Shown here piece after piece: positions 3,309 through 26,895 of a stretch of DNA of 64,000 nt. The notes below the pieces were generated by a model. The model had not been told where the DNA came from and did no database searches. It saw only the letters and a program-made list of their open reading frames with translations. The position numbers were made by a program, and so were the translations under genes. The DNA comes from a virus (lineage: Duplodnaviria; Heunggongvirae; Uroviricota; Caudoviricetes): positions 60,098-124,097 of IMG/VR virus record IMGVR_UViG_3300020045_003677, one strand, 5' to 3'. Numbering within the stretch: position 1 is the stretch's first letter; each line of letters begins with the position of its first letter.

Positions 3309-4080
3309 CCTTTAATCCTATTTCTTTTAGAGTAAGTCCAATAGTCTGTCTGGTTAATCCCGACAACCTAGCTATATCATTATAAGTATAGTTCTCAATT
3401 CCAATAGACTTAAGCTTATCCACCGACTCTATAACAGATTGAATAGTTCTATTCTTCTTATCCAATCCAGTCTTAGTCCAGTAACAGTTGACAGCATGCA
3501 GAGATTCATCCACAAACGCAGCAACTTCCTTAGTCTTATACTTAGTATCAATAGACATCAACTGTCTACTCTTATCAATGTAATCGTTTCTCAATAACTT
3601 CTGTATCTGTTTCCTACCACCCTCTGTACAATCCTTACTATACCATATATCATGGAAGCAGAATATACTTGTATGCATCTTAGGAAGAACTTCACTCAAT
3701 GAATCTAAACAGTATGCATCACTAACAGCCTTAGCAAGTAGTAATGGATCAGGCTTCCGATAGTAAGAAGTATTAAACTTGTACTTCAGAACATCCTGAA
3801 TAATGTCTCTAGGCTTATTATGGTTCAACATTCTCAGTGCAACAGCATTCTGAAACAGTACACCATACTCTCCCAACGTTGGTAATAAGAAAGGTAGCAT
3901 ATTCACAGACACTTGTAATCTATTCTCATCAGTCTGAACATATCCATCTTCATTAAATGCATATCCCTCTGGACAATCATGTCTGTTGGTCCATCTAATA
4001 GTACCAATAATATCTAATATATTCCTACTCATTGCAGGTATAGCAGGTACGATGCTAATCTTGTCTGTCTTCTTTCTCAT
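3298..4080 (-). CDS. Hypothetical protein with a C-terminal helix-turn-helix. Possible DNA-binding or endonuclease-associated protein.
   Basis: C-terminus IENYTYNDIARLSGLTRQTIGLTLKEIG is a clear HTH. The N-terminal domain is unassigned. Confidence 0.45.
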   Translation of the reverse strand: MRKKTDKISIVPAIPAMSRNILDIIGTIRWTNRHDCPEGYAFNEDGYVQTDENRLQVSVNMLPFLLPTLGEYGVLFQNAVALRMLNHNKPRDIIQDVLKYKFNTSYYRKPDPLLLAKAVSDAYCLDSLSEVLPKMHTSIFCFHDIWYSKDCTEGGRKQIQKLLRNDYIDKSRQLMSIDTKYKTKEVAAFVDESLHAVNCYWTKTGLDKKNRTIQSVIESVDKLKSIGIENYTYNDIARLSGLTRQTIGLTLKEIGLKDEG

Positions 4081-5130: not shown

Positions 5131-5745
5131 ATGAATAATGATTCTTTATTAGCCGCAAAGGCTCAGTTCTTGACCGTTGATTTTCTTAGTAGCCTATCTG
5201 AATCAGATGGCATGACCGCCGAATTGGTTGGTCGTGAGTTTACTATCGCCGCCTTGTACCCACACAAGACGCTGAAAGACTACAACGGTAACCCGAAGGT
5301 CATGATCAAGGCCGTTCGTGATGGGAAGGTTAACGAGTGGTTCGCTGAATCAGTCCTAACCAGGTTCTCTGTAGACAGCTGTGAAGCTGGTATAACCATT
5401 GCTAAAGGCCGCAGCTTTGCTGATGCTGCTAGCGAAGGAGTGTTGGTCTCTCGTTTTACTGTCACTGGATCAACTCCAGCAGTAGATCGTAATGGCTACG
5501 CACAATACCGTCGTGATGCGCTGTCAGCATTGAAGGTACAGAAGTTGCTGAAAGGTGACTATGAAGCATACCGTTCAAAGGAGGCATCTCCAGAGAAGTC
5601 GGAAGCTTATCGTACCATTGCAGCTAACATTGAGGACTTGTTCCTTGATTCGCTGTGTACACGCCCTAACGGCCCGCTAACACCGGAGAATGAGGCAAAG
5701 TATCGCCTTGTTAACCCGACTGTGTTGGTTGCAGAGGTTATTTAG
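5131..5745 (+). CDS. Hypothetical protein.
   Basis: 204-aa ORF with ATG start. A conserved intergenic motif lies upstream. Confidence 0.6.
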   Translation: MNNDSLLAAKAQFLTVDFLSSLSESDGMTAELVGREFTIAALYPHKTLKDYNGNPKVMIKAVRDGKVNEWFAESVLTRFSVDSCEAGITIAKGRSFADAASEGVLVSRFTVTGSTPAVDRNGYAQYRRDALSALKVQKLLKGDYEAYRSKEASPEKSEAYRTIAANIEDLFLDSLCTRPNGPLTPENEAKYRLVNPTVLVAEVI

Positions 5746-6196: not shown

Positions 6197-6276
6197 TACA
6201 TTCGTTCACGGTATCAACGGTCAGATCGTTGTTATCGACTGCATCTATGATAATCCATATTGCAACTAATATAAGA

Positions 6277-6310
6277 GAGTGTCCTGCCCCCACAGGATGC
6301 TCTTCTTTTT
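6277..6310 (+). terminator. Rho-independent terminator.
   Basis: About a 10-bp stem (gagtgtcctg/caggatgctc) with a cccccA loop, followed by ttcttttt. Confidence 0.6.
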
Positions 6311-6450
6311 AAGGCCCGCGACATCCAACCACGACATACATAATTGCGATATCTAACTAAGACTTTTGCATGTTTTTACCCCGATTCTCACATATAGCAA
6401 AGTGAGATATCAATCAAGCGTGTTATTTATAAATCCTTAATAGTTAAAGA

Positions 6451-7098
6451 ATGAACGAGTTAACAATTGAACAAAGAAACGCCATGTTAGTTGGTGTATT
6501 GGCCGTATTAGCAGCGTCTACTGCAGGTACATTGTCAATGAATGGTATTGCTGTTGATGATGAGATTCAGCTCATGCAGATGCTTACTTCAAGCACAGCA
6601 CCACGTAGCCGCGTATCGGCAGAACACCCACAGTTTGTGTTCAAATCAGCCACAGGTAAACGCTTCACAGTTAGTGACACTGGTCTTCCAGCAATGCGTA
6701 TCCTGGCTTCAGGTAAAACCTTTGACTCATTACAGGCTGGCATGTTGAAAGACATCGCTAACAGTCCTGATGTGAGCTTCTTCAAAACTGTACTCGAAAC
6801 CCTTGAGAAAGGTAGAGAGATTGACATCACTAAGGTGAAGTTCAAATGTGTTGGTAAATTACCACAATCGAATTCTCTCGACCGCGATGTGCCCGCTATG
6901 ATCAACTCATGCTATAATGGCATCGAAGATTATCGTGCAGCCACAAGCGTAGCTGACCCGGATTATAACACAGCTCGTGAGGCATTACATGCTTCTAAGT
7001 TGAAACCGGAGTTCAAAAACAAATCATGGGCTAACGTTGACGACCGTCAATACTTCAGCTCAACACCGATTTTCCAGATCGACTGGAACCAGGCATAA
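6451..7098 (+). CDS. Hypothetical protein.
   Basis: 215-aa ORF. Confidence 0.6.
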   Translation: MNELTIEQRNAMLVGVLAVLAASTAGTLSMNGIAVDDEIQLMQMLTSSTAPRSRVSAEHPQFVFKSATGKRFTVSDTGLPAMRILASGKTFDSLQAGMLKDIANSPDVSFFKTVLETLEKGREIDITKVKFKCVGKLPQSNSLDRDVPAMINSCYNGIEDYRAATSVADPDYNTAREALHASKLKPEFKNKSWANVDDRQYFSSTPIFQIDWNQA

Positions 7099-7099
7099 G

Positions 7100-8140
7100 C
7101 TTGGAATCATTAGGATGGAGCTATTGTAGGGGTAGCTCCTCCTTACTTACCCGCTGGCGCGTCTTCGGACATTCGCCGGTGGGTTTAAGTTGATTATTCA
7201 CAATGCCAACATATAATAATCATGAAATGAGGCTTCTGCTATCATATAAAGATTATTGAGAGCTATGGATAGCCTAACACGCTGATCTACTCTCCAGAGT
7301 GCCCGGATACACAAATAAAACGTCGGGATAAATTTGCTACCGTTGAATATTAATAATGGTAGGACGGAGGTGGCGGAACCTCATCTTTACGGGCGTGAAC
7401 CGTGACAAACCTGTGGGGCTAGTGTGTGATATGTAGAGTGGCAAGCGACAGCTTCTCTATATACGAAACGGATCGTCGCTGATCCAGTATCACAACTTAG
7501 TGCAGACTTTAAAACCAGGTAGTCTAGGGTACATATTGAGAATATGTGCGGAGACTTTAAGAACCTTACAACCTCAACAACATCTGATAGTGTTGTAATA
7601 CAGTTCAATGCGGATCTATCGGACCGACATAACACTGCACGATGGGATACATTCAAGCTAACCAGACGCCGACTATGGCGTTCATGGCATGCACTAGTAT
7701 ACCCTGCGACGTAATCCTTATAATGTGCTCGTTGAACAGCACGGTATCGTATGGTCAAGCGATATGATAGGGTGAATTTATAACCATACAAACAAAAGCA
7801 ACACCTGGATGCTGGTAAATCAGGTAGGGACATGAACCGATGTCTCGAGTCTTCGACATTATTAAAAAGCTCAACTATCCCGAGTAAGCCAATGCTATGT
7901 CTAGATACGACAGATGCGGCCTCTACGCCGGAGAAATGAGAAAAGCCAACCACCAAGGAGAGCGGTATAGTGGAAACGAGACTGAGTGCCTATGCATATC
8001 ACCATCGTTTTCACTTCCGTTACTCGGTTCTCTTTTGACAGCTGGTTCATATATTAAGTCGTCTCACTATGATGATTTAGTAATATTGGACCAACCATAA
8101 TTATCAATTTCTAGTACCAAATCTTGTATTAATACTTAAA
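7100..8140. ncRNA. Candidate structured non-coding RNA region. About 1 kb, GC-rich and without an ORF.
   Basis: No credible ORF on the plus strand. A long hairpin at about 7149-7190 carries a UUCG tetraloop. Further hairpins include acgcc-gactat-ggcgt at about 7666. GC content is clearly higher than the flanking genes. Confidence 0.3.
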
Positions 8141-8143
8141 AGA

Positions 8144-8350
8144 ATGATGATACTATTTGAGGTATTCAGCACGTTGATACTTGCTAGTATACTGATTTAC
8201 ATACTGATAAGACCATTGTTATACGGTCGTAAGCCCTCAGAGCCGAAGATGATACTGATAGTATTTGCAGTTCATATATTGATAGTGATATCAGTAGTAG
8301 AGGTTGTATATGCTATTGCTCAGTACTTAATCACACTGTCGAAGATATGA
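8144..8350 (+). CDS. Small membrane protein.
   Basis: 68-aa hydrophobic ORF. It is first in a run of overlapping small genes. Confidence 0.45.
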   Translation: MMILFEVFSTLILASILIYILIRPLLYGRKPSEPKMILIVFAVHILIVISVVEVVYAIAQYLITLSKI

Positions 8351-8586
8351 TCTTAGGAGAACTATTGCTCGTAATAATCTTTATAGTAGGGTATAAACCC
8401 TCTAAGAAGAGATTTAAGGACTATGGTGGCTTTGATGAATACCTGCACTCTACTGAAGGACATAAAGCTGTTGATGGTTTAGTTATGGCTACCATGTTAT
8501 CTGGTCTAGCTCTAGCTATTGATATCATAGTACGTGTTGTTAAGTTTACAATGACTAGTGGGTTATTAACCTATAAGCTATTCTAA
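8347..8586 (+). CDS. Small membrane protein.
   Basis: 79-aa ORF. Its start overlaps the upstream stop. Confidence 0.45.
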   Translation: MILGELLLVIIFIVGYKPSKKRFKDYGGFDEYLHSTEGHKAVDGLVMATMLSGLALAIDIIVRVVKFTMTSGLLTYKLF

Positions 8587-18129: not shown

Positions 18130-18620
18130 TGGCTAGATTCACATCTTCCCAGGAGATAATAGACTTCCATAGATGGTTGGAAACTGATGATGAGTTTGTC
18201 TTTCCTGTAGAAGGGGGTAAATCTATTGAGTTTAGACTCCGTAGTTATAGACCCAAGACTACTGATCAGAAGTTGACAGATAAGGAGTCTGTAAAGGCTA
18301 TACGGGATGCTGCTGGTATATCGGCTGAGCAGATGTTGAACATCGCTCAAAAGCATTACTCAGTAGATTCGTATGACCAAAGTAGTACTGGCCTAGGCGA
18401 CAGATGGCCTGAAAGGAACAATGATCATGGTAATTCTCCAAGTGAGATGAGCAATATGATTATTGAGATATTCAAGCTTATCGAAGAGCGTCGGAATCCT
18501 ACTGCAAAAGGGTATCGGACTACTCCGCAACAAGCTTCGCCTATAAAGGCTGGTGGCTTAGTTGTAGCAAGTATTGATCTTAGGTTGGGTACGCCCAATT
18601 TGGATATTAATGTTCGTTAA
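18129..18620 (+). CDS. Hypothetical protein.
   Basis: 163-aa ORF with ATGG start coupling. Confidence 0.55.
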   Translation: MARFTSSQEIIDFHRWLETDDEFVFPVEGGKSIEFRLRSYRPKTTDQKLTDKESVKAIRDAAGISAEQMLNIAQKHYSVDSYDQSSTGLGDRWPERNNDHGNSPSEMSNMIIEIFKLIEERRNPTAKGYRTTPQQASPIKAGGLVVASIDLRLGTPNLDINVR

Positions 18621-18628
18621 ATCGAACT

Positions 18629-18715
18629 GGAGATGTGGGTGAGTGGCTTAAACCACCGGTATGCTAAACCGGAGGCCCTTAACAGGGTCCGGGAGTTCGA
18701 ATCTCTCCGTCTCCG
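18629..18715 (+). tRNA. tRNA-Ser (anticodon GCU).
   Basis: Class II tRNA. Anticodon stem ccggt/accgg with loop auGCUaa, a long variable arm and T-loop ttcgaat. Confidence 0.85.
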
Positions 18716-18885
18716 CAATTAATGTTGAAAGACAGTGTGCTGCCTCAGTTAACAGGGCGTATAGCACCATTACTCAGAAGTAATACATTTAGTTTTATGA
18801 GAGTATTTAATCGGTACAGGAATTTGGAAGGGGTTGACCGCACTGTGCCTGAAAACACATGCACTGTCCAGTGATTCACTAAGGG

Positions 18886-19101
18886 ATGGGCCCCTCTTCC
18901 GTACCTAACAGTCTAACAATGAAGATGTCAGAATTAACACCAGAACAGATACAACACATTATTTCTCAATGTAGGTTAGTACCATGTACTGTAAATGAGG
19001 TAGCTAAGAGAACCTATTCAGGGTATACTCATGCTAATTTCATAAAAATATTTGAAGAACAATACAAAGATTTACCTTCTCCAATAAGGAGTGAGGAATA
19101 A
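18886..19101 (+). CDS. Hypothetical protein.
   Basis: 71-aa ORF. Confidence 0.45.
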   Translation: MGPSSVPNSLTMKMSELTPEQIQHIISQCRLVPCTVNEVAKRTYSGYTHANFIKIFEEQYKDLPSPIRSEE

Positions 19102-19104
19102 GAT

Positions 19105-19176
19105 GGAGCTTTCGTCTAGGGGTTAGGACACGGGCTTTTCATGCCTGGAACACGAGTTCGATTCTCGTAGGCTCTA
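19105..19176 (+). tRNA. tRNA-Glu (anticodon UUC).
   Basis: gtc-taggggttagga-cac D-arm and anticodon loop uuUUCau. Resembles bacterial tRNA-Glu. Confidence 0.85.
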
Positions 19177-19201
19177 CTAGTTAATTAACTTAAACATAAC
19201 A

Positions 19202-19792
19202 ATGGATGCGAAATTAATAAAAAACGATCAACTTAGTCTCTCATGCAAATTCTATAAAGAGACTATTCTTACATCTCCTACTGGTAAGACAATGACCAGT
19301 AAAGAGTTGGCTGCCATTACTGAGCTTGGGTTGGATACATCCACGATTGTGAGTACTGAGGTTAACCTTGCTACTATCAATATTGGATCCGGTCGTAGTA
19401 TGAAGGGCATGACTGAACAACAGGTACAGGCATTAATTAATGTCTTGAACTGCACTCATAAAAGCACTGATGTTAATTCGGCAGATGCTACTTTACTTAA
19501 AGGTAAGTACTGTGATTTTTCAACAACTCGTACTATTGTGAAGCCTATCAACATTACGTTTGATAATGGTGCTATTGCTGAGATAACTGCAGATATGATC
19601 GACTATAACAGTCGTGTAGCTGTTCTTGTCCCTGAAGAATACTTTGGTAATCAGTTTAGATTACGTAATGTGTACGGTTATAGTGTTAAGTTCTCATCGA
19701 GAGATACCATCATTGGTGTTGGATGTCATACATATAACTTTGCTGACCTGATTGTATTTTTACAAAAGATTCACGCACACTTATTATCGTAG
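19202..19792 (+). CDS. Hypothetical protein, paralogue of the downstream gene.
   Basis: 196-aa ORF that shares the ELG(L/F)DTST motif with 19794..20444. Confidence 0.55.
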   Translation: MDAKLIKNDQLSLSCKFYKETILTSPTGKTMTSKELAAITELGLDTSTIVSTEVNLATINIGSGRSMKGMTEQQVQALINVLNCTHKSTDVNSADATLLKGKYCDFSTTRTIVKPINITFDNGAIAEITADMIDYNSRVAVLVPEEYFGNQFRLRNVYGYSVKFSSRDTIIGVGCHTYNFADLIVFLQKIHAHLLS

Positions 19793-19793
19793 T

Positions 19794-20444
19794 ATGAGGA
19801 AAGTAAAATCATTTAATTGTGGCCCATTCAATATTGAGTGTGTTATACATGAGTTAACCAAGTGTACAAATCCAGACGGAGTAGTTGTGGACTTTGATCA
19901 GGTTAATAAAGCTAAAGAGCTAGGATTCGATACCAGTACGTTCAAGTTCGAACCGTCGTTTGAATACCATCTCACCTTTGGATACAGTTCAACTATTAGA
20001 TTTACTATTGATCAGATAATAGCTTTCAGAGATCTTATTGAGGGTATTATAGCTACCGGTACTGTGTCTTCCATTACCTATGAAGCTCTTAAACACTTAC
20101 CTAACATTAAGTTTGTACCGGTCATAAGATTGCTCCAAGACCTTGATGTTACCTTGCCTAATGGAGCCTCTATTACTGTAACTACTGGACTGGTTGGGGA
20201 ACCTTTCCTATCACTATTACCCGATGAGTACATTGTTAAGGAATATAAGGTGCTGAAGTTCTATAATGCAAAGTTTGCTGGTGACTCTACAGGGTTTACC
20301 GTAATGACTAGGTTTGGTGATACCTCAAAGCTCATTGACTTCTTTGACAGAATTATTACATATTACAAGGAGATGTTAACTTCTAAAGATAACGGTGGTC
20401 TAGGTATTGACGCCTTAGAAAGTGAGCCCACACAGACCCCGTAA
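19794..20444 (+). CDS. Hypothetical protein, paralogue of the upstream gene.
   Basis: ATG at 19794 lies immediately after the upstream stop. The track ORF is extended 5' in-frame. Confidence 0.55.
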   Translation: MRKVKSFNCGPFNIECVIHELTKCTNPDGVVVDFDQVNKAKELGFDTSTFKFEPSFEYHLTFGYSSTIRFTIDQIIAFRDLIEGIIATGTVSSITYEALKHLPNIKFVPVIRLLQDLDVTLPNGASITVTTGLVGEPFLSLLPDEYIVKEYKVLKFYNAKFAGDSTGFTVMTRFGDTSKLIDFFDRIITYYKEMLTSKDNGGLGIDALESEPTQTP

Positions 20445-20654
20445 GAAAGGGTGAAAACGAAACACTTAGAAAGACTGGAAAGCGAGTTGCCCCTTGAGAA
20501 CATCGGGTTTATGTTTGCACTGATGCCAAAACAGTATCCAGATTGATCAGTACTCACGCTAAACTATGTAAGCGGCATGGTGATTGGATCAGGCTTGGTC
20601 CGTTTATACGGCCTGGTATGTAGAGTATTCCGTGGCTGGTAAGTGTTTTTAAAT

Positions 20655-20736
20655 GGCCTCATGGCGGAATTGGTAGACGCGCTAGACTTAGGATCTGGTG
20701 TCGCGAGGCGTGAGAGTTCGAGTCTCTCTGAGGTCA
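20655..20736 (+). tRNA. tRNA-Leu (anticodon UAG).
   Basis: gcg-gaattggtaga-cgc D-arm, anticodon loop cuUAGga, a long variable arm and T-loop ttcgagt. Confidence 0.85.
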
Positions 20737-20820
20737 CGCTTGATTATTCTCAACGGCAGGGGTGCTGGTTGGGGGCGAGTGGATTAGGGTAACCTAGTTC
20801 ACTCTTTTTGTTTACTTAAA

Positions 20821-21159
20821 TTGATAGTTATGAAAGAATTATTTCATTCCTTGGTGTCCCTACTACAAACATTGATCTATGGATCTTTGTTTGGTTGCCT
20901 ACTAGTCATCATGTTCCTTCATGGAATGTATCGTGATCAGTATCCGGTGTATGACAACATTAAATGTATAGTAATTGATTCTGGAATGTACGCTAGTCGG
21001 TATGCTCCTAAGTCCTTCATTACTATCCGGATGGTAGATGATAGCACAAAAACAACTGTGCTTCATAGTGCCAATTATAGAGAATTTACTGATTTTAAGT
21101 ATAAAATTGGTGATACTCTACATTTCAAGTGGTTATTAAAAAGCAGATTTACTCATTAA
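20821..21159 (+). CDS. Membrane protein.
   Basis: 112-aa ORF with an N-terminal hydrophobic segment. Confidence 0.5.
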   Translation: MIVMKELFHSLVSLLQTLIYGSLFGCLLVIMFLHGMYRDQYPVYDNIKCIVIDSGMYASRYAPKSFITIRMVDDSTKTTVLHSANYREFTDFKYKIGDTLHFKWLLKSRFTH

Positions 21160-21169
21160 TAAATTAATC

Positions 21170-21526
21170 ATGAAAAACGACAAAGTATTGTTAAGTATTG
21201 TTCTTACTCAGTTTGCTGATGGTAAAGAAGACGTTGCAGTGGTAACACCTGAAGTTGTTGCAGCAGAAGGTACTCTTGCTCCAGAAACTGTAGCTGAAGA
21301 AGACAACGAGCCTATCAGATGTGCTATGGCTGTGACTGTTGATGGACCATCAAGTCTTATCCACCAGTCTTTGGTAAAAGCTTTCACTGAACACGATGAG
21401 CTTATGGGTATCTTCAGAAATGCAATTTCTGAGGTTATGATGGCCAAAATGTTTGGTGGTGGTCTTTCGGATCTTATCGATGCACTTGGTGGCAAAGAAG
21501 AGTCTACCGAAAAAACTGAGGAGTAA
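21170..21526 (+). CDS. Acidic hypothetical protein.
   Basis: 118-aa ORF rich in Glu/Asp. Confidence 0.5.
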   Translation: MKNDKVLLSIVLTQFADGKEDVAVVTPEVVAAEGTLAPETVAEEDNEPIRCAMAVTVDGPSSLIHQSLVKAFTEHDELMGIFRNAISEVMMAKMFGGGLSDLIDALGGKEESTEKTEE

Positions 21527-21535
21527 TATTCTCAT

Positions 21536-21610
21536 GGACCTGTAGCCAAGTTGGTAACGGCACCAGACTCATAATCTGGAGATGCGCGAGTTCGAAGCTC
21601 GCTGGGTCCA
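21536..21610 (+). tRNA. tRNA-Met (anticodon CAU).
   Basis: Canonical cloverleaf. Anticodon stem ccaga/tctgg with loop cuCAUaa and T-loop ttcgaag. Confidence 0.85.
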
Positions 21611-21629
21611 CTAATTTAATTACACTAAT

Positions 21630-21866
21630 ATGCCACTAACAATTCCAGGAAAGTGCTCCTCTTGTAAGCACAAACGAACAGTTCCGGGAGATGCACATAT
21701 TAGATGTGCTAATCCAGACCCTGACATGACGGGATACCCTCATGGTATAAGACAAGGATGGTTCTACTATCCAGTACTATTTGATCCAGTATGGATGACT
21801 AAAGAGTGTAACAACTATGAATGTAAAGACGAAACTCTCAAAACTAATGAGAAAGACCCCGGATAA
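21630..21866 (+). CDS. Small Cys-rich protein.
   Basis: 78-aa ORF with CSSC...C...C cysteine clusters. Confidence 0.45.
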   Translation: MPLTIPGKCSSCKHKRTVPGDAHIRCANPDPDMTGYPHGIRQGWFYYPVLFDPVWMTKECNNYECKDETLKTNEKDPG

Positions 21867-21961
21867 TAATAAATACTGCCCTGTGCTTGCTTTTGGGTAT
21901 GGTAACGGAAGCTTTCTTATAATGATTCCGTGGTTCAGTATTCAATTTAATCGAATTAAAA

Positions 21962-22207
21962 ATGAAAAACGGTGATAAAGTACATTATGTACCCTTTGAT
22001 GGGTGCACTAACGAAGAATGCCGAAATGGGATGATCAAACGTACCTTTACTGGTATGGATGACTATTACTATGTCGCGTATGGATGCCAAGACCCTGCAG
22101 ATATCAACAAACATAAAGGTGAGTTAACCCTCATCAGTAAGTTGAAAGAAAATTGGGTTGAACAGAACTTTCCTGAAGATACCACTGAAGAGGAGGAAGA
22201 ATGGTAA
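21962..22207 (+). CDS. Hypothetical protein.
   Basis: 81-aa ORF. Confidence 0.45.
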   Translation: MKNGDKVHYVPFDGCTNEECRNGMIKRTFTGMDDYYYVAYGCQDPADINKHKGELTLISKLKENWVEQNFPEDTTEEEEEW

Positions 22208-22473
22208 GCAAGTTCGAACAATACAAAGCTGCAATGTTACAATATTGTAGTACTGATGCCCTAGAGCTATTTGAAAAGTTCTTGAAGAAGGAGAAGGTGT
22301 TCGAGAATTTCGAAGCTAATCTAAATCTTCGCGAGAACATGATTATACAAGGCCCACATCTACTTACTGCTAATGCGTTTGTGTGGATGAGTACACCTGA
22401 GAAGTTCGATTTCTGGTGGGGTATTGATGAACGATGGGTAAATTATCTATTGAAACATGGGCCAAAAGCATAA
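22201..22473 (+). CDS. Hypothetical protein.
   Basis: 90-aa ORF. Confidence 0.45.
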   Translation: MVSKFEQYKAAMLQYCSTDALELFEKFLKKEKVFENFEANLNLRENMIIQGPHLLTANAFVWMSTPEKFDFWWGIDERWVNYLLKHGPKA

Positions 22474-22738
22474 AGAAATCGAAGTAAGTGGTACTCAAAG
22501 AGTACGCGTGACCGTCGATCCATTGATTGTGATGGAGAAAGAATATGATAGATCGGTTCCTCGACATACTTTTCTAAAGGAAATAGATGGAAAGTTCTAC
22601 ATACTATGTGATGATCAGCTCGACGATGACATCTCTGATAGCGAGATTAGTAAAGAAGAGTTTGATTATCTTACCAGTCTAAAATTTGCTATTAGAGCAT
22701 TATTAACATTTAGGGTATGGTCTACAAAGGGCAAATAA
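22457..22738 (+). CDS. Hypothetical protein.
   Basis: 93-aa ORF. Confidence 0.45.
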   Translation: MGQKHKEIEVSGTQRVRVTVDPLIVMEKEYDRSVPRHTFLKEIDGKFYILCDDQLDDDISDSEISKEEFDYLTSLKFAIRALLTFRVWSTKGK

Positions 22739-23130
22739 CTCAGCTCGAACCAAACGAGATATTCGTATTTGGTAGTAACACTCAAGGTCGCCATGGTAAA
22801 GGTGCAGCATTAATTGCTAGACAGAAGTTTGGTGCTATCTATGGTCAAGCACGAGGTCGTCAAGGCCAGTGTTATGCTATAGTAACCAAGGATCTTACTA
22901 AGGACTATAATTCGCCCTCAGTCAGTATTGAGTGTATTAAACAGGAGATAAGAGACCTGTATGGCTATGCTCGATTATATCCAGAGTTAAAGTTCTATGT
23001 AGCATACTCGGGTACCGGCACCAATCTAAACAACTATTCAAATCCATTGATGGCAACTATGTTTCGTCAGAGACCCATTCCAGAGAATATTGTGTTTGAA
23101 GAGTCATTCGACAGATTAGTAAACTTTTAA
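22717..23130 (+). CDS. Conserved Rossmann-like domain protein. Possibly a SLOG/DprA-like nucleotide-binding fold.
   Basis: The motif FVFGSNTQGRHGKGAA...GA..G...GQCYAIVTK is a Gly-rich Rossmann-type signature recurrent in phage proteins. Family assignment is tentative. Confidence 0.4.
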   Translation: MVYKGQITQLEPNEIFVFGSNTQGRHGKGAALIARQKFGAIYGQARGRQGQCYAIVTKDLTKDYNSPSVSIECIKQEIRDLYGYARLYPELKFYVAYSGTGTNLNNYSNPLMATMFRQRPIPENIVFEESFDRLVNF

Positions 23131-23271
23131 CATTTTGATACTATATCATGAGAAAAGTAATCTTTTTGCTATTATGCTTGGTGTTAGCCAGTTGTGCAAC
23201 ACCTAAGAAGTTTGGGTACCCAAAGGGAACTCAGATGAATACTGATTGGAGAATTCGTAAACTATAATTAA

Positions 23272-23559
23272 ATGAAACTGAAAGCTATAACTGGAATAAT
23301 AGTATTGTTCCTACTGATACTAACCGGGTATTTGTTATTGAATGAGATGTTTAGTCTAAGTAAGGCTAATGAGATCAATCGACAGAAGACGCTACAACGA
23401 GAGATGTTCAAATTGGGCGCCTCTATGTACAGGTCTCAAGTGATCAATACATATGGTGATTCTATCATATTTCCCATTGACTCACTGTTCATACGCGAAG
23501 TGTTCGATTATAACGATACTCTTGGTCATGAAATTGAGGGTGTAGCCTTCGAAAATTAA
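23272..23559 (+). CDS. Membrane-anchored hypothetical protein.
   Basis: 95-aa ORF with an N-terminal transmembrane segment. Confidence 0.45.
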   Translation: MKLKAITGIIVLFLLILTGYLLLNEMFSLSKANEINRQKTLQREMFKLGASMYRSQVINTYGDSIIFPIDSLFIREVFDYNDTLGHEIEGVAFEN

Positions 23560-23566
23560 CAAGGAT

Positions 23567-23640
<74 letters not shown>

Positions 23641-23655
23641 CTAATAACTTGTACC

Positions 23656-23814
23656 ATGTATACAGAACAAGAAATGCTTGAGTTTGCTGTATGGTGTGGA
23701 ACCAACTTTGTATCATACCATTCGAAGCGTGATGGTGAGAGAATATGGTTTGACCCAGAAAAGGTTGTGTACCAAACAACAAAGCAGTTATTAAAAATTT
23801 GGAGTAATAAATAA
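23656..23814 (+). CDS. Small hypothetical protein.
   Basis: 52-codon ATG ORF below the track cutoff, between tRNA-Arg and the next gene. Confidence 0.3.
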   Translation: MYTEQEMLEFAVWCGTNFVSYHSKRDGERIWFDPEKVVYQTTKQLLKIWSNK

Positions 23815-23831
23815 TTTAACGTAAAAATCAC

Positions 23832-24629
23832 ATGAGCTTAAAATTGAATGTGTTATTGGCGATAACTGACGCACTACGCGTGAAGTTTAAAAATATGGTA
23901 GCCGACCATACGAAGTTTTATCAGAAAGCCCAAGGAGCATTCCTGGGTACAAAAGCAACATATGTCAACCGCGAAGGTTGTTTAGATGATCCAAGCAAGC
24001 GTAAGTTTGTGAAAGTTATCACAACTGTTGACGAAAAGATTGCGTATTTTATCAAAGAGTCGAAAGAGTTTGTTGATGCTCTTATGTCACAAGAGAAAAC
24101 CAATGCATCCGGTATTGCAACTGCAGAACTTGTTGTGAATGGAGAATCTTGGGGTGTATTTACATCATTGGAACTGCTTCGTTTGAAGTCTTTGATCGAA
24201 TCTGCAGAGTTTGGTAGCCTTGAGCAGATGATTGCTGGAATCCCGGTAAGATCAGATGCTGAGATATGGGCCCCAACAACCAAGGAAGAATATGCCGATA
24301 GAGCAATCTATGAAGCTCCTCTTGCCTCTGGTGAATCGCGTACATCTTCTAAAGAGGAGTACATTCTCGAAGATCCGAACCTTTCTAAGCTTACATCTGG
24401 TAGTTATCAGCCTAAGCTTGCTACGCGCACAACTGTATTCACCATTGGTGACTATACTACCCAGGATTTCTCTGGTGAGTGGTCTCAACGTGAGCGTGCC
24501 GGAGCATTGAAAAGGAGAAGTGATCTTCTTATTGCCGTTACAAAAGCCCTTAAAGAATCTAATGACTGTACTGTTATCAACTCTGAGTTGACAGCGGATA
24601 GAATCTTTGGATTTATCTTCAAAGGGTAA
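23832..24629 (+). CDS. Hypothetical protein.
   Basis: 265-aa ORF. Confidence 0.6.
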   Translation: MSLKLNVLLAITDALRVKFKNMVADHTKFYQKAQGAFLGTKATYVNREGCLDDPSKRKFVKVITTVDEKIAYFIKESKEFVDALMSQEKTNASGIATAELVVNGESWGVFTSLELLRLKSLIESAEFGSLEQMIAGIPVRSDAEIWAPTTKEEYADRAIYEAPLASGESRTSSKEEYILEDPNLSKLTSGSYQPKLATRTTVFTIGDYTTQDFSGEWSQRERAGALKRRSDLLIAVTKALKESNDCTVINSELTADRIFGFIFKG

Positions 24630-24792
24630 CACAAAATATTGGTTCAAGCTTTAATCTTAACTTTAACTTTAATCCAGCCCATAGCGCGTTTTAGATTTTT
24701 AGTTGTACCAAAAGATTTAGCTTGAACTTTATTGGTAGGAGTAGTCAGGTGGAAAACAAACGAAAAATTACAGAGAATGTAACTTTTTTGAA

Positions 24793-24830
24793 GTTGTCGG
24801 TCGCGGGTTTGAGTCCCGTCACGGCCTCCA
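24793..24830 (+). tRNA. 3' half of a split, permuted tRNA, predicted Gln-UUG-like. It has an anticodon 3' strand, variable loop, T-arm, acceptor 3' strand and an encoded CCA.
   Basis: gttgt-cggtc-gcggg-tttgagt-cccgt-cacggcc-t-cca. Its acceptor and anticodon strands are exact complements of the 5' half at 25030..25059. Confidence 0.45.
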
Positions 24831-25029
24831 TTATTATCACGTTTGAGGTTTACATAGACATTTCTCCATACTAGGGCAGTTGTGCTTGCTAATAGGTGGT
24901 TAAGACATAGCTCTGCCTATAGTAAAGTACATCACAGTCTTACTTGAAAGAAAGTATAAAGGAAGGTATCCGAGCAAAGAGGGTTTGACTTGGCCCCACC
25001 AAACGTAATATTAGTACAATGCAATAACT

Positions 25030-25059
25030 GGCCGTGTAGCTTAGTGATAGAGCAACAAC
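25030..25059 (+). tRNA. 5' half of the same split, permuted tRNA. It has an acceptor 5' strand, D-arm and anticodon 5' strand.
   Basis: ggccgtg-ta-gctt-agtgata-gagc-a-acaac. It lies 199 nt downstream of its 3' half. D-loop A19 covaries with U56 in the tttgagt T-loop. Confidence 0.45.
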
Positions 25060-25150
25060 CCAAAGAAAATAGCTTTAGCATAAGTACACTTGAATATGAA
25101 ACTACACAGAGACCCCGTCCTAAGAAGGATACTGATCGGATGGGGTACAT

Positions 25151-25222
25151 GGGGAGGTGGTGCAGTGGTAGACACGCACAGCTATGGTGTGAATTGCGTC
25201 GGTTCGAATCCGACCCTCCACA
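25151..25222 (+). tRNA. tRNA-like gene with a non-canonical anticodon arm (possible UAU with C33) and an acceptor mismatch. May be a pseudogene or decoy.
   Basis: The T-arm gtcgg-ttcgaat-ccgac and D-loop cagtggtaga are canonical. Acceptor ggggagg/cctccac has a G-A mismatch at 2-71. Best anticodon stem is 4 bp (caca/tgtg) with loop gcUAUgg. Confidence 0.4.
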
Positions 25223-25419
25223 CAAAAATTGAGCCATGAAAAGAGAAAAGAAAGTAAATGTTAATGATGATGAGCGCTGGCCTGCTTACAATGAACTTAA
25301 GTCTAAGGGTGATACTATAAAAGCTAACAAGCTTAAAGAAGAGATCCTAGATTCATATAAATGGAAGAAGCCATGTCATCATGTGGCAGAGAGGTAATCA
25401 ATAACTTAAATTTATAACA

Positions 25420-25788
25420 ATGAAATTAACATTTAAACATAGGCCTGGGTATCTTTTCTCTCTAAGAGTATTAGATACTAATGGAGATGAGGTAGTTATG
25501 TCTTATTCTGTAGACGATATACTGAAAAGTATACTGGTATCTAAGCAGCAAGAGTCTGGTATTATTACTTACAGCACATTCAAATCAAGTAAACCTTGTA
25601 TTGGTGTTTGTAATGTCAATTGCGGTGATTGGAAAGTTGTTTATTCAAACATTGAAGGTGTTGAAGTAAATGATCCTCTACGTATCTGTATGACCGGGTT
25701 TAAGAAGCATGTTGGTGCACTAAGATCTAAATTATTTAAGACACATTATTTTATCATTGAAACAGATGAATCTACAACTGTTGATTAG
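25420..25788 (+). CDS. Hypothetical protein.
   Basis: 122-aa ORF with an A-rich start context. Confidence 0.55.
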   Translation: MKLTFKHRPGYLFSLRVLDTNGDEVVMSYSVDDILKSILVSKQQESGIITYSTFKSSKPCIGVCNVNCGDWKVVYSNIEGVEVNDPLRICMTGFKKHVGALRSKLFKTHYFIIETDESTTVD

Positions 25789-25789
25789 G

Positions 25790-25951
25790 ATGTTTGTATG
25801 GTTTCCATTGTTGAAACGATACAAAATGATATTTCCTTATAAGGAGCCATATCTATATGCAGGGCTAAATCCTAAATGGAAGAACCCTGATGGGTCACAA
25901 ATGACCATAAAAGAACGTAAATTGCTATACAAAAACTGGATAACAGCATGA
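25790..25951 (+). CDS. Small hypothetical protein.
   Basis: ATG at 25790 right after the upstream stop. The track ORF begins at TTG 25757. Confidence 0.35.
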   Translation: MFVWFPLLKRYKMIFPYKEPYLYAGLNPKWKNPDGSQMTIKERKLLYKNWITA

Positions 25952-26292
25952 CAGAACAAGAAATTAAAGATGGGTCTATCCTGATTGCTAAGTTCTTAGG
26001 ATGGAAACAAGGGTTTCTCTTTGAATGGACTTGCCCTTTTGAACCTTCTAAAAACGGCTTTAGGAATATCTATGCACCTAATGGTAATGGTATGAAATTT
26101 CATACTGACTGGAACTGGTTAATAGCTGGTGCCAAGAAGTTTGATGGTATTCATGACCAGATCGCTGAAGAACATATAGCTGATTATGTGTGTATGTGCG
26201 ATGAACAGGATGATTCTGTTACATGCTATGATATAATGAACGCTTTCGAAGTGTTGGTGAATAACGTTAAATGGTATAATTCGATAGTATGA
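25948..26292 (+). CDS. Hypothetical protein.
   Basis: 114-aa ORF. Confidence 0.5.
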   Translation: MTEQEIKDGSILIAKFLGWKQGFLFEWTCPFEPSKNGFRNIYAPNGNGMKFHTDWNWLIAGAKKFDGIHDQIAEEHIADYVCMCDEQDDSVTCYDIMNAFEVLVNNVKWYNSIV

Positions 26293-26486
26293 TACCAGGA
26301 GATAAGATTCACTATGTTGCCCCTCATGAAGGAGCAGTACCACAGAACGGTATGTTCAAGTCTTTGAATGAGTTCGATAAAACACATATCTTTGTAGTGT
26401 TTAACTGTGGAGAAGACTGGGAACGGTACAAGGACTATACAGGACAAAATACGCCCATATCCCGGGTCTTTCCGGGTTGGGTATAA
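26289..26486 (+). CDS. Hypothetical protein.
   Basis: 65-aa ORF overlapping the upstream stop. Confidence 0.4.
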   Translation: MIPGDKIHYVAPHEGAVPQNGMFKSLNEFDKTHIFVVFNCGEDWERYKDYTGQNTPISRVFPGWV

Positions 26487-26719
26487 CTTATTACCTACTG
26501 AGGCAGAATTAGTGAAATAGGCGAGTTAACGCTCATACGGCGCCTAAGAAGGACGCACCACTAAGTCATTCTAAGATGACCATTCTGATAAAGGCATGGC
26601 GGCTGCAGATGGCAGTGTCAATATTTGCGTGCTCCACTACTTAGAAGTGGATAGGTAACAACATTTGCATCGTAAGGTGTAAGTAGTATGCGTAATAGTG
26701 TACATAAAAGCGTATGCTT

Positions 26720-26794
26720 TGCGAGGTGGCGCAGATTGATTAGCGCACTCCCGACGAAAGGGAGAGGTCGTAGGTTTGAATCCTGCCCTCGCTA
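26720..26794 (+). tRNA. tRNA-like gene with a non-canonical anticodon loop. Anticodon CGA with A33, a short variable arm, a U56 T-loop and a 1-72 mismatch.
   Basis: gcgc-agattgatta-gcgc D-arm, anticodon stem ctccc/gggag with loop gaCGAaa, and T-arm gtagg-tttgaat-cctgc. D-loop A19 covaries with U56. Confidence 0.5.
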
Positions 26795-26801
26795 CAAAAT
26801 T

Positions 26802-26875
26802 CATGAGATAGCTCAGCCCGGTAGAGCAGCGGACCCATATTCCGCGTGTCGGTGGTTCAAATCCATCTCTCGTGA
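26802..26875 (+). tRNA. tRNA with anticodon CAU (Met or Ile2-like). Its anticodon loop is unusual, with C33.
   Basis: Acceptor catgaga/tctcgtg, D-arm gctc-agcccggtaga-gagc, anticodon stem gcgga/tccgc with loop ccCAUau, and T-loop ttcaaat. Confidence 0.7.
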
Positions 26876-26895
26876 CTAATTTTAAATTAATAACA

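Follow-up and report, generated by a model that had tools for sequence, protein, structure and literature searches.

We analysed a 64,000-nucleotide (nt) stretch of phage DNA, hereafter the window, which is part of a 175,292-nt contig from an uncultured phage (IMG/VR record IMGVR_UViG_3300020045_003677). A 1045-nt gap on its plus strand (7099-8143), lying between the open reading frames (ORFs) 6451..7098 and 8144..8350, carries a Hatchet self-cleaving ribozyme followed by a conserved structured domain of about 500 nt. Cleavage by this ribozyme probably separates the messenger RNA (mRNA) of the upstream gene from a Hatchet-capped, structured noncoding RNA (ncRNA) of about 630 nt. From the sequence we infer that the locus is transcribed, that cleavage actually takes place, where the RNA ends at its 3' side and that the domain functions as a separate RNA. 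The ribozyme class is a known one; what appears to be new is the structured domain of about 500 nt attached to it and the modular architecture of the locus. An earlier note on this DNA had proposed a self-splicing-intron-like element; a catalytic RNA is indeed present, but it belongs to the Hatchet class and nothing in the region matches an intron.

The gap contains a Hatchet ribozyme

The role of Hatchet ribozymes has been unexplained since their discovery in 2015, and the early papers knew them only from anonymous metagenome fragments (PMC4604424, PMC6765202). Among the papers available to our literature search there was no later report of a long RNA linked to a Hatchet. Comparison of the window with Rfam by Infernal, the check that the earlier note had advised, revealed a full-length match to Hatchet (model positions 1-133; 71.7 bits against a gathering score of 51; E 9.5e-13). 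Hatchet is the only Rfam family besides the transfer RNAs (tRNAs) that reaches its gathering score in the 64-kb window. The residues that are highly conserved in the family, C20-A22 (CAA), U28-G31 (UGGG), G63-G66 (GCAG) and A73-A75 (AAA) (PMC6561176), are all present in the window, as CAA 7406-7408, UGGG 7414-7417, GCAG 7502-7505 and AAA within UUUAAAACC. A permissive Rfam scan of 6900-8400 (E <= 10) gave no intron, RNase P, transfer-messenger RNA (tmRNA), GOLLD, ROOL or RAGATH and nothing else credible besides Hatchet. Likewise, ARAGORN found no tmRNA.

We collected relatives of the locus through the upstream protein together with a lineage-specific Hatchet pattern (L001/L003 from IMG/VR, L124 and L125 from metagenomes), from the protein database (L126, L127, L129, L130, L132, L133 and L134) and through the downstream gene (L147). 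Every relative that covers the ribozyme position has a Hatchet above the gathering score, save L132, which is without ribozyme and domain. The seven matches (L001, L124, L125, L126, L130, L133 and L147) score 53.5-74.8 bits. Helices P2, P3 and P4 are kept through compensatory changes in seven members: in P2, A-U changes to G-C and C-G to A-U in three of the seven, and eight further pairs in P3 and P4 are changed on both sides. P1 forms in every member, with the alignment out of register for two of them.

Hatchet ribozymes cleave at their 5' end, leaving a 2',3'-cyclic phosphate on the upstream product and a 5'-hydroxyl on the downstream one (PMC4604424, PMC6561176), and about 90% of them have a preceding P0 hairpin without sequence conservation (PMC4604424). 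In the window, C7385-U7386 directly before P1 corresponds at sequence level to the Hatchet C(-1)/U1 step. The local P0 hairpin that abuts this step folds with -8.5 kcal/mol (z = -2.1); L124 has a different hairpin at this position (GAUGGUU/AACCAUC), and P0 hairpins of unrelated sequence precede the cleavage site in all seven variants. Together the results show that 7383-7520 belongs to the Hatchet family by sequence and structure, with cleavage predicted.

A conserved structured domain follows the ribozyme

We examined covariation in the domain with a seven-sequence alignment (A4), using as controls slid pairing partners and 500 shuffles. The consensus structure has 44 pairs. In the alignment 93.7% of the cells are paired, against 29-51% in the slid controls, and 24 pairs are changed on both sides, against 1-3 in the slid controls; none of the 500 shuffles reaches the observed values. 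Many of the pairs are G-U, which would be A-C on the other strand, indicating that the strand of the domain is the plus strand.

The three-way junction at 7714-7773 is, on the alignment evidence, the best-defined module of the domain. Its cells are 95.8% paired and 9 of its 17 pairs are changed on both sides, compared with 0-2 for slid partners and with no match among the 500 shuffles. It also holds the conserved sequences UAUAAUG and UGAU(A/G)(G/A)G. A covariance model of the junction (R1) gives 92.7 bits for window 7707-7778 and 49.6 bits for L133, which was not in the model; it matches none of about 120 other Hatchet loci.

Directly after the ribozyme stands a hairpin of -12.6 kcal/mol (z = -4.35) with six pairs changed on both sides (helices 1 and 2 of A4); L125 has a fully different 14-bp stem at this position. 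The earlier note had pointed to a direct repeat in this region, and an exact 9-nt repeat, AGACTTTAA, does occur at 7504-7512 and 7552-7560. It is explained by the Hatchet 3' core on one side and the 3' strand of this adjacent covarying hairpin on the other. The sequence CUUUAA[AG]AA[CU]C of the second copy is conserved in 6 of 7 members. We also observed that a motif resembling the Hatchet 3' core, AGACUUUAAGAACC, recurs about 45 nt past the ribozyme, directly after the hairpin (7552-7568), and that an unrelated Hatchet family (L005 at about 3703-3775 and other family A loci) has an analogous hairpin followed by GAGUUAAAACUA. The recurring motif is without the CAGG needed for P2.

Further on lie two interleaved helices, S1 (ACAACA 7577-7582 / UGUUGU 7591-7596) and S2 (UCUGAUAG 7583-7590 / CUAUCGGA 7616-7623), with an invariant block, AUACAGUU (7598-7605), between their strands. 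S2 has four pairs changed on both sides (helix 3). S1 is found in all seven members and covaries within the window sub-lineage (ACAACA/UGUUGU, AUGACA/UGUCAU, ACGGCAU/GUGUCGU). Since the linkers between S1 and S2 have zero length in the window type, it is uncertain whether the two helices form simultaneously. The acgcc-gacuau-ggcgu hairpin that had been noticed before is present at 7666-7681, but it is not unusual (z = -1.7) and the variable segment in which it lies is not conserved between the sub-lineages. The two hairpins that come after the junction have five pairs changed on both sides (helices 8 and 9 of A4), and the first is supported in alignment A9 as well. In the region of conserved blocks behind them L147 has about 60 extra nt.

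The 3' hairpin folds with -19.0 kcal/mol (z = -3.9). Its stem is 93% paired with three pairs changed on both sides, values that come from only three sequences and are equalled by 30 of 500 shuffles. The 25-nt loop includes an 8-nt palindrome, UAUGCAUA, through which RNA molecules might dimerise or which a protein might bind on the DNA. The 5' part of the loop, GACUGAGU, is complementary to the invariant block at 7598-7605, and a long-range pairing is predicted; because both partners are invariant, covariation cannot test it. The terminator scan does not call this hairpin, and its U-run lies in the stem, so that it does not qualify as an intrinsic terminator.

The domain has no Rfam match in any member. 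The element is single copy in each genome, with no further copy elsewhere in the window or among other phage loci totalling about 1.1 Mb, and no terminal repeats of the element were found. A block scan with AACGAGACTGAGTGCC gave one match, in L002, and one with TGTAAYCTCTATAATGT gave 12, all attributed to chance; block scans of the genome collections gave 0 matches. Likewise, nhmmer, blastn and a covariance model detected no homology between the domain and the sequences that follow the ribozyme in two other Hatchet families. A general noncoding tail of about 580 nt after phage Hatchets, which we had considered, is an artefact of a 100-amino-acid ORF cut-off, as small conserved genes start 215-300 nt downstream of the ribozyme. 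These searches suggest that the domain is limited to this phage lineage, and it matches no described family. Coordinates of all features are listed in Table 1.

Table 1. Features of the gap between ORFs 6451..7098 and 8144..8350, in window coordinates.
Feature	Position	Strand	Description
Hairpin H1 in 3' untranslated region (UTR) of the 215-amino-acid gene	7112..7143	+	Stem AGGA-GGAGCUAUU/GGUAGCUCC-UCCU; loop region UUGUAGGGG invariant
Hairpin H2 (UUCG)	7149..7184	+	11 + 3 bp; -23.5 kcal/mol; z = -4.5
Lineage-specific insert, about 190 nt	7185..7361	+	Between H2 and ribozyme; several hairpins and a promoter-like site
Local P0 hairpin	7362..7385	+	Directly 5' of cleavage site; core GAGGU 7367-7371 / ACCUC 7378-7382
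Hatchet self-cleaving ribozyme (Rfam RF02678)	7383..7520	+	Predicted cleavage C7385/U7386
Antisense ORF, 189 amino acids	7387..7956	-	TTG start; spurious; only long ORF in gap
Post-Hatchet hairpin	7521..7556	+	AGUCU...GUACAUAU-UGAGA-AUAUGUGC...AGACU; directly after ribozyme
Second repeat copy	7552..7568	+	AGACU (3' strand of post-Hatchet hairpin), then conserved single-stranded CUUUAAGAACCU
Interleaved helices S1 and S2	7577..7623	+	H-type pseudoknot or alternative pairings
Variable segment	7624..7713	+	L126, L130, L147 and the L125 group differ here in sequence and length
Three-way junction	7714..7773	+	Closing stem AUCCU/AGGGU; hairpins GUGCU/AGCAC and GUAUCGU/GCGAUAU
Two hairpins	7803..7846	+	CCUG 7804-7807 / CAGG 7821-7824; GGGACAU 7827-7833 / AUGUCUC 7840-7846
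Conserved blocks	7846..7968	+	CGAGUCUUCGA (7846-7856), CCCGAGUAAGCC (7879-7890), GCCUCU; variable segments between
3' hairpin	7969..8015	+	11-bp stem AGUGGAAACGA/UCGUUUUCACU; invariant 25-nt loop GACUGAGUGCCUAUGCAUAUCACCA (7980-8004)
AT-rich tail	8016..8143	+	GC 0.31; conserved block GGTTCATATATTAAGTCGTCT (8044-8064)

The gap is non-coding

The gap is the longest plus-strand ORF-free interval within the part of the window where genes run on the plus strand, and its longest plus-strand ORF has at most 67 amino acids, in agreement with the earlier observation of about 1 kb without a credible ORF. Each plus-strand frame holds 19-25 stops, and every stop codon occurs 4-10 times per frame. Stop-codon reassignment, an idea prompted by a tRNA with a CTA anticodon at 25151, is ruled out: with all three stops abundant in every frame, no single reassignment opens 7099-8143 and the tRNA cannot rescue a reading frame. 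The small plus-strand ORFs of the gap were rejected as genes because stops or frameshifting indels interrupt each of them in several relatives. Coding under a shifted or recoded frame, which the earlier note had named as one finding that would overturn its view, thus fails: no open frame of the gap, standard or recoded, is conserved in the relatives.

The antisense ORF was rightly regarded as the only long ORF of the gap and as a random translation, but its composition is rich in Ser, Leu, Val and Arg, and Cys, which had been supposed to be frequent, is not among its six commonest residues. Its homologous stretch in L001, the closest relative in the viral database, is closed by stops in all six frames, and a PHROG search with it gave no match. 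The interval 7099-8143 is non-coding.

The G+C content (GC) of the gap is 0.431 (0.447 for 7099-8015) compared with 0.399 for the whole window, which places it at the 92.6th percentile among 1045-nt windows. The gap had been described as clearly GC-rich; it does exceed the window, but the coding gene just upstream has an equal value (0.448) and gene 5131-5745 a higher one (0.480). The enrichment is slight, and the argument from GC to a stable RNA is weak.

The upstream gene, its 3' hairpins and a lineage-specific insert

Gene 6451-7098 encodes a protein of 215 amino acids. GenBank phages show nothing similar to the protein or the gap at the DNA or protein level, searches of Pfam and PHROG gave no family for the neighbouring proteins of the element, and the predicted structure of the protein is unusable (mean predicted local distance difference test score, pLDDT, 47). 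Hairpin H1 in the 3' UTR of this gene folds with -17.6 kcal/mol (z = -3.3) and shows compensatory changes in L124, L001 and L125. L132 (764-935), in which the upstream gene is most distantly related, keeps it with the loop UUGUAGGGA; there a terminator-like hairpin follows it, and both Hatchet and downstream domain are missing. As H1 occurs in the Hatchet-less L132, it is part of the upstream gene rather than of the ribozyme. All members share an invariant H1 loop. The loop motif TTGTAGGGG was also counted as a possible recurring signal; its 14 copies against 10.8 expected are not above chance.

The UUCG-capped hairpin to which the earlier note had drawn attention is our GC-rich hairpin H2. 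In L001, L125, L126, L130 and L133 a UUCG- or UUAG-capped hairpin with a very different outer stem ends 3-4 nt before the cleavage site. From this comparison we identify H2 as the homologue of the Hatchet P0 hairpin, which in the window has been moved upstream by an insert. H2 is not called by the terminator scan, and the sequence that follows it, UUUAAGUUGAUUAUU, is not that of an intrinsic terminator.

The insert is found only in the window, L124, L127, L129 and L134 and is absent in L001, L125, L126, L130 and L133; L124 has a further insert of 59 nt and another P0. Helices of the insert are conserved, with some compensatory changes (for example CCCGG/UCGGG to CUUGG/CCAAG), and the insert is single copy in the window. 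The region's strongest match to a sigma-70-like promoter (TTGATT-16-TATAAT, 7190-7217) lies within it and is poorly conserved in L124. Promoter-like sites number 12, against 9.1 +/- 3.3 in shuffled sequence, and are not above expectation.

Just upstream of the 215-amino-acid gene, at 6275-6304, we noticed a terminator-like hairpin of 12 bp on both strands, followed by CTTTTT on the plus strand; this points to the start of a transcription unit between 6305 and 6450. In L125 the ORF of the upstream gene opens further 5', and the extension matches window 6220-6450 in two different frames. The cause could be another start, a difference by frameshift or the conservation of untranslated sequence.

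The locus is built from separable modules

Comparison of the relatives indicates that the gap is built from separable modules. In L001, L125, L126, L130 and L133 the ribozyme comes directly after the hairpins of the upstream gene. Synteny with L125 holds for the genes upstream but not for those after the element, which places the element at the border of conserved and variable gene regions. As a side observation, the L130 contig ends (1649-1671) in Illumina adapter sequence, AGATCGGAAGAGCACACGTCTGA, showing that the assembly is contaminated there.

The ancestral order would be the 215-amino-acid gene, H1, a UUCG P0 hairpin, Hatchet and the domain of about 500 nt (7521-8015). In the window sub-lineage the insert of about 190 nt would then have split the UUCG hairpin from the ribozyme and brought its own P0. 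The Hatchet described here has a defined genomic place: a conserved gene immediately precedes it, and a long conserved folded RNA begins right behind it.

Proposed processing of the transcript

We propose that transcription reads through from the 215-amino-acid gene into the element. In the members without the insert the ribozyme abuts the 3' hairpins of the upstream gene, so that their RNA can only arise by read-through from there; in the window a second start may be possible at the promoter-like site in the insert. Hatchet would then fold and cut its own backbone between C7385 and U7386. With the cut at the very 5' end of the ribozyme, the product upstream would be the mRNA, whose 3' end would carry stable hairpins and a 2',3'-cyclic phosphate, and the downstream product would be a 5'-hydroxyl RNA that contains the whole ribozyme and the domain, about 630 nt long if it ends at 8015. 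A long ncRNA would thereby gain a defined 5' end made without a host RNase. Ends with a 5'-hydroxyl are expected to resist 5'-end-dependent decay. If this proposal is true, the job of phage Hatchets would be to make defined, host-RNase-independent ends of ncRNAs. The natural variants without ribozyme, without insert or with a truncated domain turn it into a testable hypothesis, namely that the ribozyme releases and 5'-caps a structured RNA. We put forward only tentatively that the RNA from 7386 to about 8015 might represent a new class of large folded phage ncRNA, the first with a self-cleaving ribozyme as 5' maturation device. The domain is in any case a candidate for a new large RNA family, and a small one of about 8 sequences.

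Several observations weigh against release of a separate structured ncRNA. In the L130 Hatchet (1052-1188) one highly conserved core position is changed from G to U (UUGG; UGUUGGGC), with a score that still reaches 66.7 bits. Folding of the whole region is not exceptional (z = -1.5 on the plus strand and -0.2 on the minus strand, with -3.2 for a coding control). The locus was suspected of being a structured ncRNA from the start; this description cannot be claimed from thermodynamics, but covariation supports it as a structured plus-strand RNA locus. Two sub-lineages, with 7-8 sequences in all, supply the covariation, and one alignment served both to derive the structure and to test it. Within the domain, 7850-7968 aligns poorly and yields no consensus structure. 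L126 is without the last ~150 nt, including the invariant loop, and everything after CGAGUCUUCAAAU is replaced by an unrelated gene, meaning either that these last ~150 nt are dispensable or that L126 is defective. At the 3' side, L124 and L125 share the conserved tail 8016-8143, although an unrelated gene follows it in L125, and the terminator scan calls no terminator at the proposed 3' end. The missing terminator and the conserved tail together mean that the RNA may run on into the downstream genes. The tail may be the promoter or leader of those genes or a 3' part of the RNA.

These last points also fit the main rival explanation, a cis-acting leader, in which Hatchet splits two cistrons and 7521-8143 forms a long structured 5' UTR that controls stability or translation of the following genes. 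The tail is conserved up to the next start codon, even ahead of the unrelated gene in L125, and the terminator scan finds no site on the plus strand anywhere in 7521-8143. Furthermore, two other Hatchet families have a small conserved gene 215-300 nt after the ribozyme, as expected for an order of ribozyme, leader and gene, and processing of polycistronic transcripts has been proposed in the literature (PMC6765202). However, 620 nt with a three-way junction, a pseudoknot-like element and an invariant loop of 25 nt far exceed the needs of known leaders. The following gene differs among L125, L126 and the window, so that there is no constant regulated target, and in L126 the domain is truncated and a gene begins immediately after it. 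We therefore regard a leader as rather unlikely.

The variable make-up of the locus, absent in L132, truncated in L126 and enlarged by inserts of about 190 nt in the window group and 59 nt in L124, and its position at the border of conserved and variable gene regions would also be expected of a selfish or decaying insertion, that is, a mobile or recombination-prone noncoding cassette beside the 215-amino-acid gene without a role for the phage. Against such a cassette, the compensatory substitutions in many helices and the invariant loops show purifying selection on the RNA fold, and neither terminal repeats nor, in the window and the other phage loci searched, a second copy was found. We consider it improbable.

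It is very improbable that the conserved blocks are signals at the DNA level, such as promoters, operators, origin or packaging sequences, with Hatchet as the only RNA element. The sigma-70-like match, a palindrome (TATGCATA) within an invariant block and the conserved AT-rich tail would agree with such signals; the helices, however, are kept through changes from G-C to A-U and G-U that are sensible only in plus-strand RNA, and promoter-like sites are not more numerous than expected from shuffled sequence. The conserved 3' block was likewise rejected as a recurring phage promoter, since it is unique in the window.

A self-splicing intron or its remnant, or a recoded protein-coding sequence, to which the large, ORF-free, locally structured region and the CTA-anticodon tRNA might point, can hardly be correct. 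Group I and group II intron models give no match in 6900-8400 even at E <= 10, with a tool that found a group I intron in phage locus L103. The flanking ORFs are complete and unrelated, and the downstream genes vary from relative to relative. In L132, where the element is missing, the upstream protein has the same C-terminus (..NQ). The frames are closed by all three stops, and no ORF is conserved.

The phage and other Hatchet loci

The phage encodes a family A DNA polymerase, NAMPT, a Dda-like helicase and a bank of 13 tRNAs. Its polymerase is only about 25% identical to those of crAss-like phages, and the phage is only distantly related to crAss-like and Bacteroides phages. The 13 tRNA genes are all on the plus strand (13119-32530), and the bank lies 5 kb from the element. 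The CTA-anticodon tRNA (25151-25223) resembles an amber suppressor and scores only 34.3 bits in Rfam; of the 59 long open frames in the window, 14 still end in TAG. For the tRNAs at 28245, 28736 and 32449 ARAGORN gives unusual anticodon loops. Just before the first tRNA, 11936-12507 is a 572-nt gap without an ORF of at least 70 amino acids on either strand, in which no Rfam family matches at the gathering threshold.

Other phage contigs with Hatchets (L005, L036, L089, L051, L017, L044 and others) carry two or three Hatchets each. These loci also hold RAGATH-6, -7, -7-assoc and -9, permuted tmRNA and tRNAs, as well as unrelated conserved sequences of 200-300 nt between the Hatchet and a small gene, without Rfam annotation. 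In Hatchet family B a block of about 120 nt is almost invariant.

Comparison with known systems

Like the Hatchets described before, the member found here comes from uncultured metagenomic, phage-like DNA. It differs from the crystallised Hatchet (PMC6561176) in its L2, which is ACUU and not the palindromic ACGU that drove dimerisation in the crystal, and from the family in its long P4, with about 80 nt between the core halves, and in the fusion of its 3' end to a conserved domain of about 500 nt that lies outside the family.

RAGATH RNAs are structured RNAs found near twister, hammerhead and Hatchet ribozymes. The domain resembles them as a conserved structured RNA beside a self-cleaving ribozyme in phage DNA; however, no RAGATH model matches the window or its relatives, and the domain is 3-4 times longer and continuous with the 3' end of the ribozyme. 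GOLLD and ROOL, both Rfam families, are large ncRNAs of phages and prophages, and they share with the putative RNA described here the large size (about 0.5-0.8 kb), an intricate fold and the origin from a phage with many tRNA genes. Neither matches the region at E <= 10, and the tRNA bank is 5 kb away and not adjacent. To our knowledge, neither GOLLD nor ROOL has been described as led by a self-cleaving ribozyme.

Theta ribozymes, which are minimal and hepatitis delta virus (HDV)-like, flank phage tRNAs, and that phage type carries suppressor tRNAs (PMC10879173). In both systems a self-cleaving ribozyme of a large uncultured phage sets the end of an ncRNA, a function that is predicted for the window Hatchet. 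The latter is of a different ribozyme class and precedes a large RNA instead of standing next to a tRNA. Some bacterial small RNAs derive from 3' UTRs and are released by RNase E from longer transcripts. The processing we propose would be similar in yielding an ncRNA from downstream of a coding gene by an endonucleolytic cut; in contrast to these small RNAs, the cut would be made by the RNA itself, would leave a 5'-hydroxyl and not a 5'-monophosphate, and would give a much larger product.

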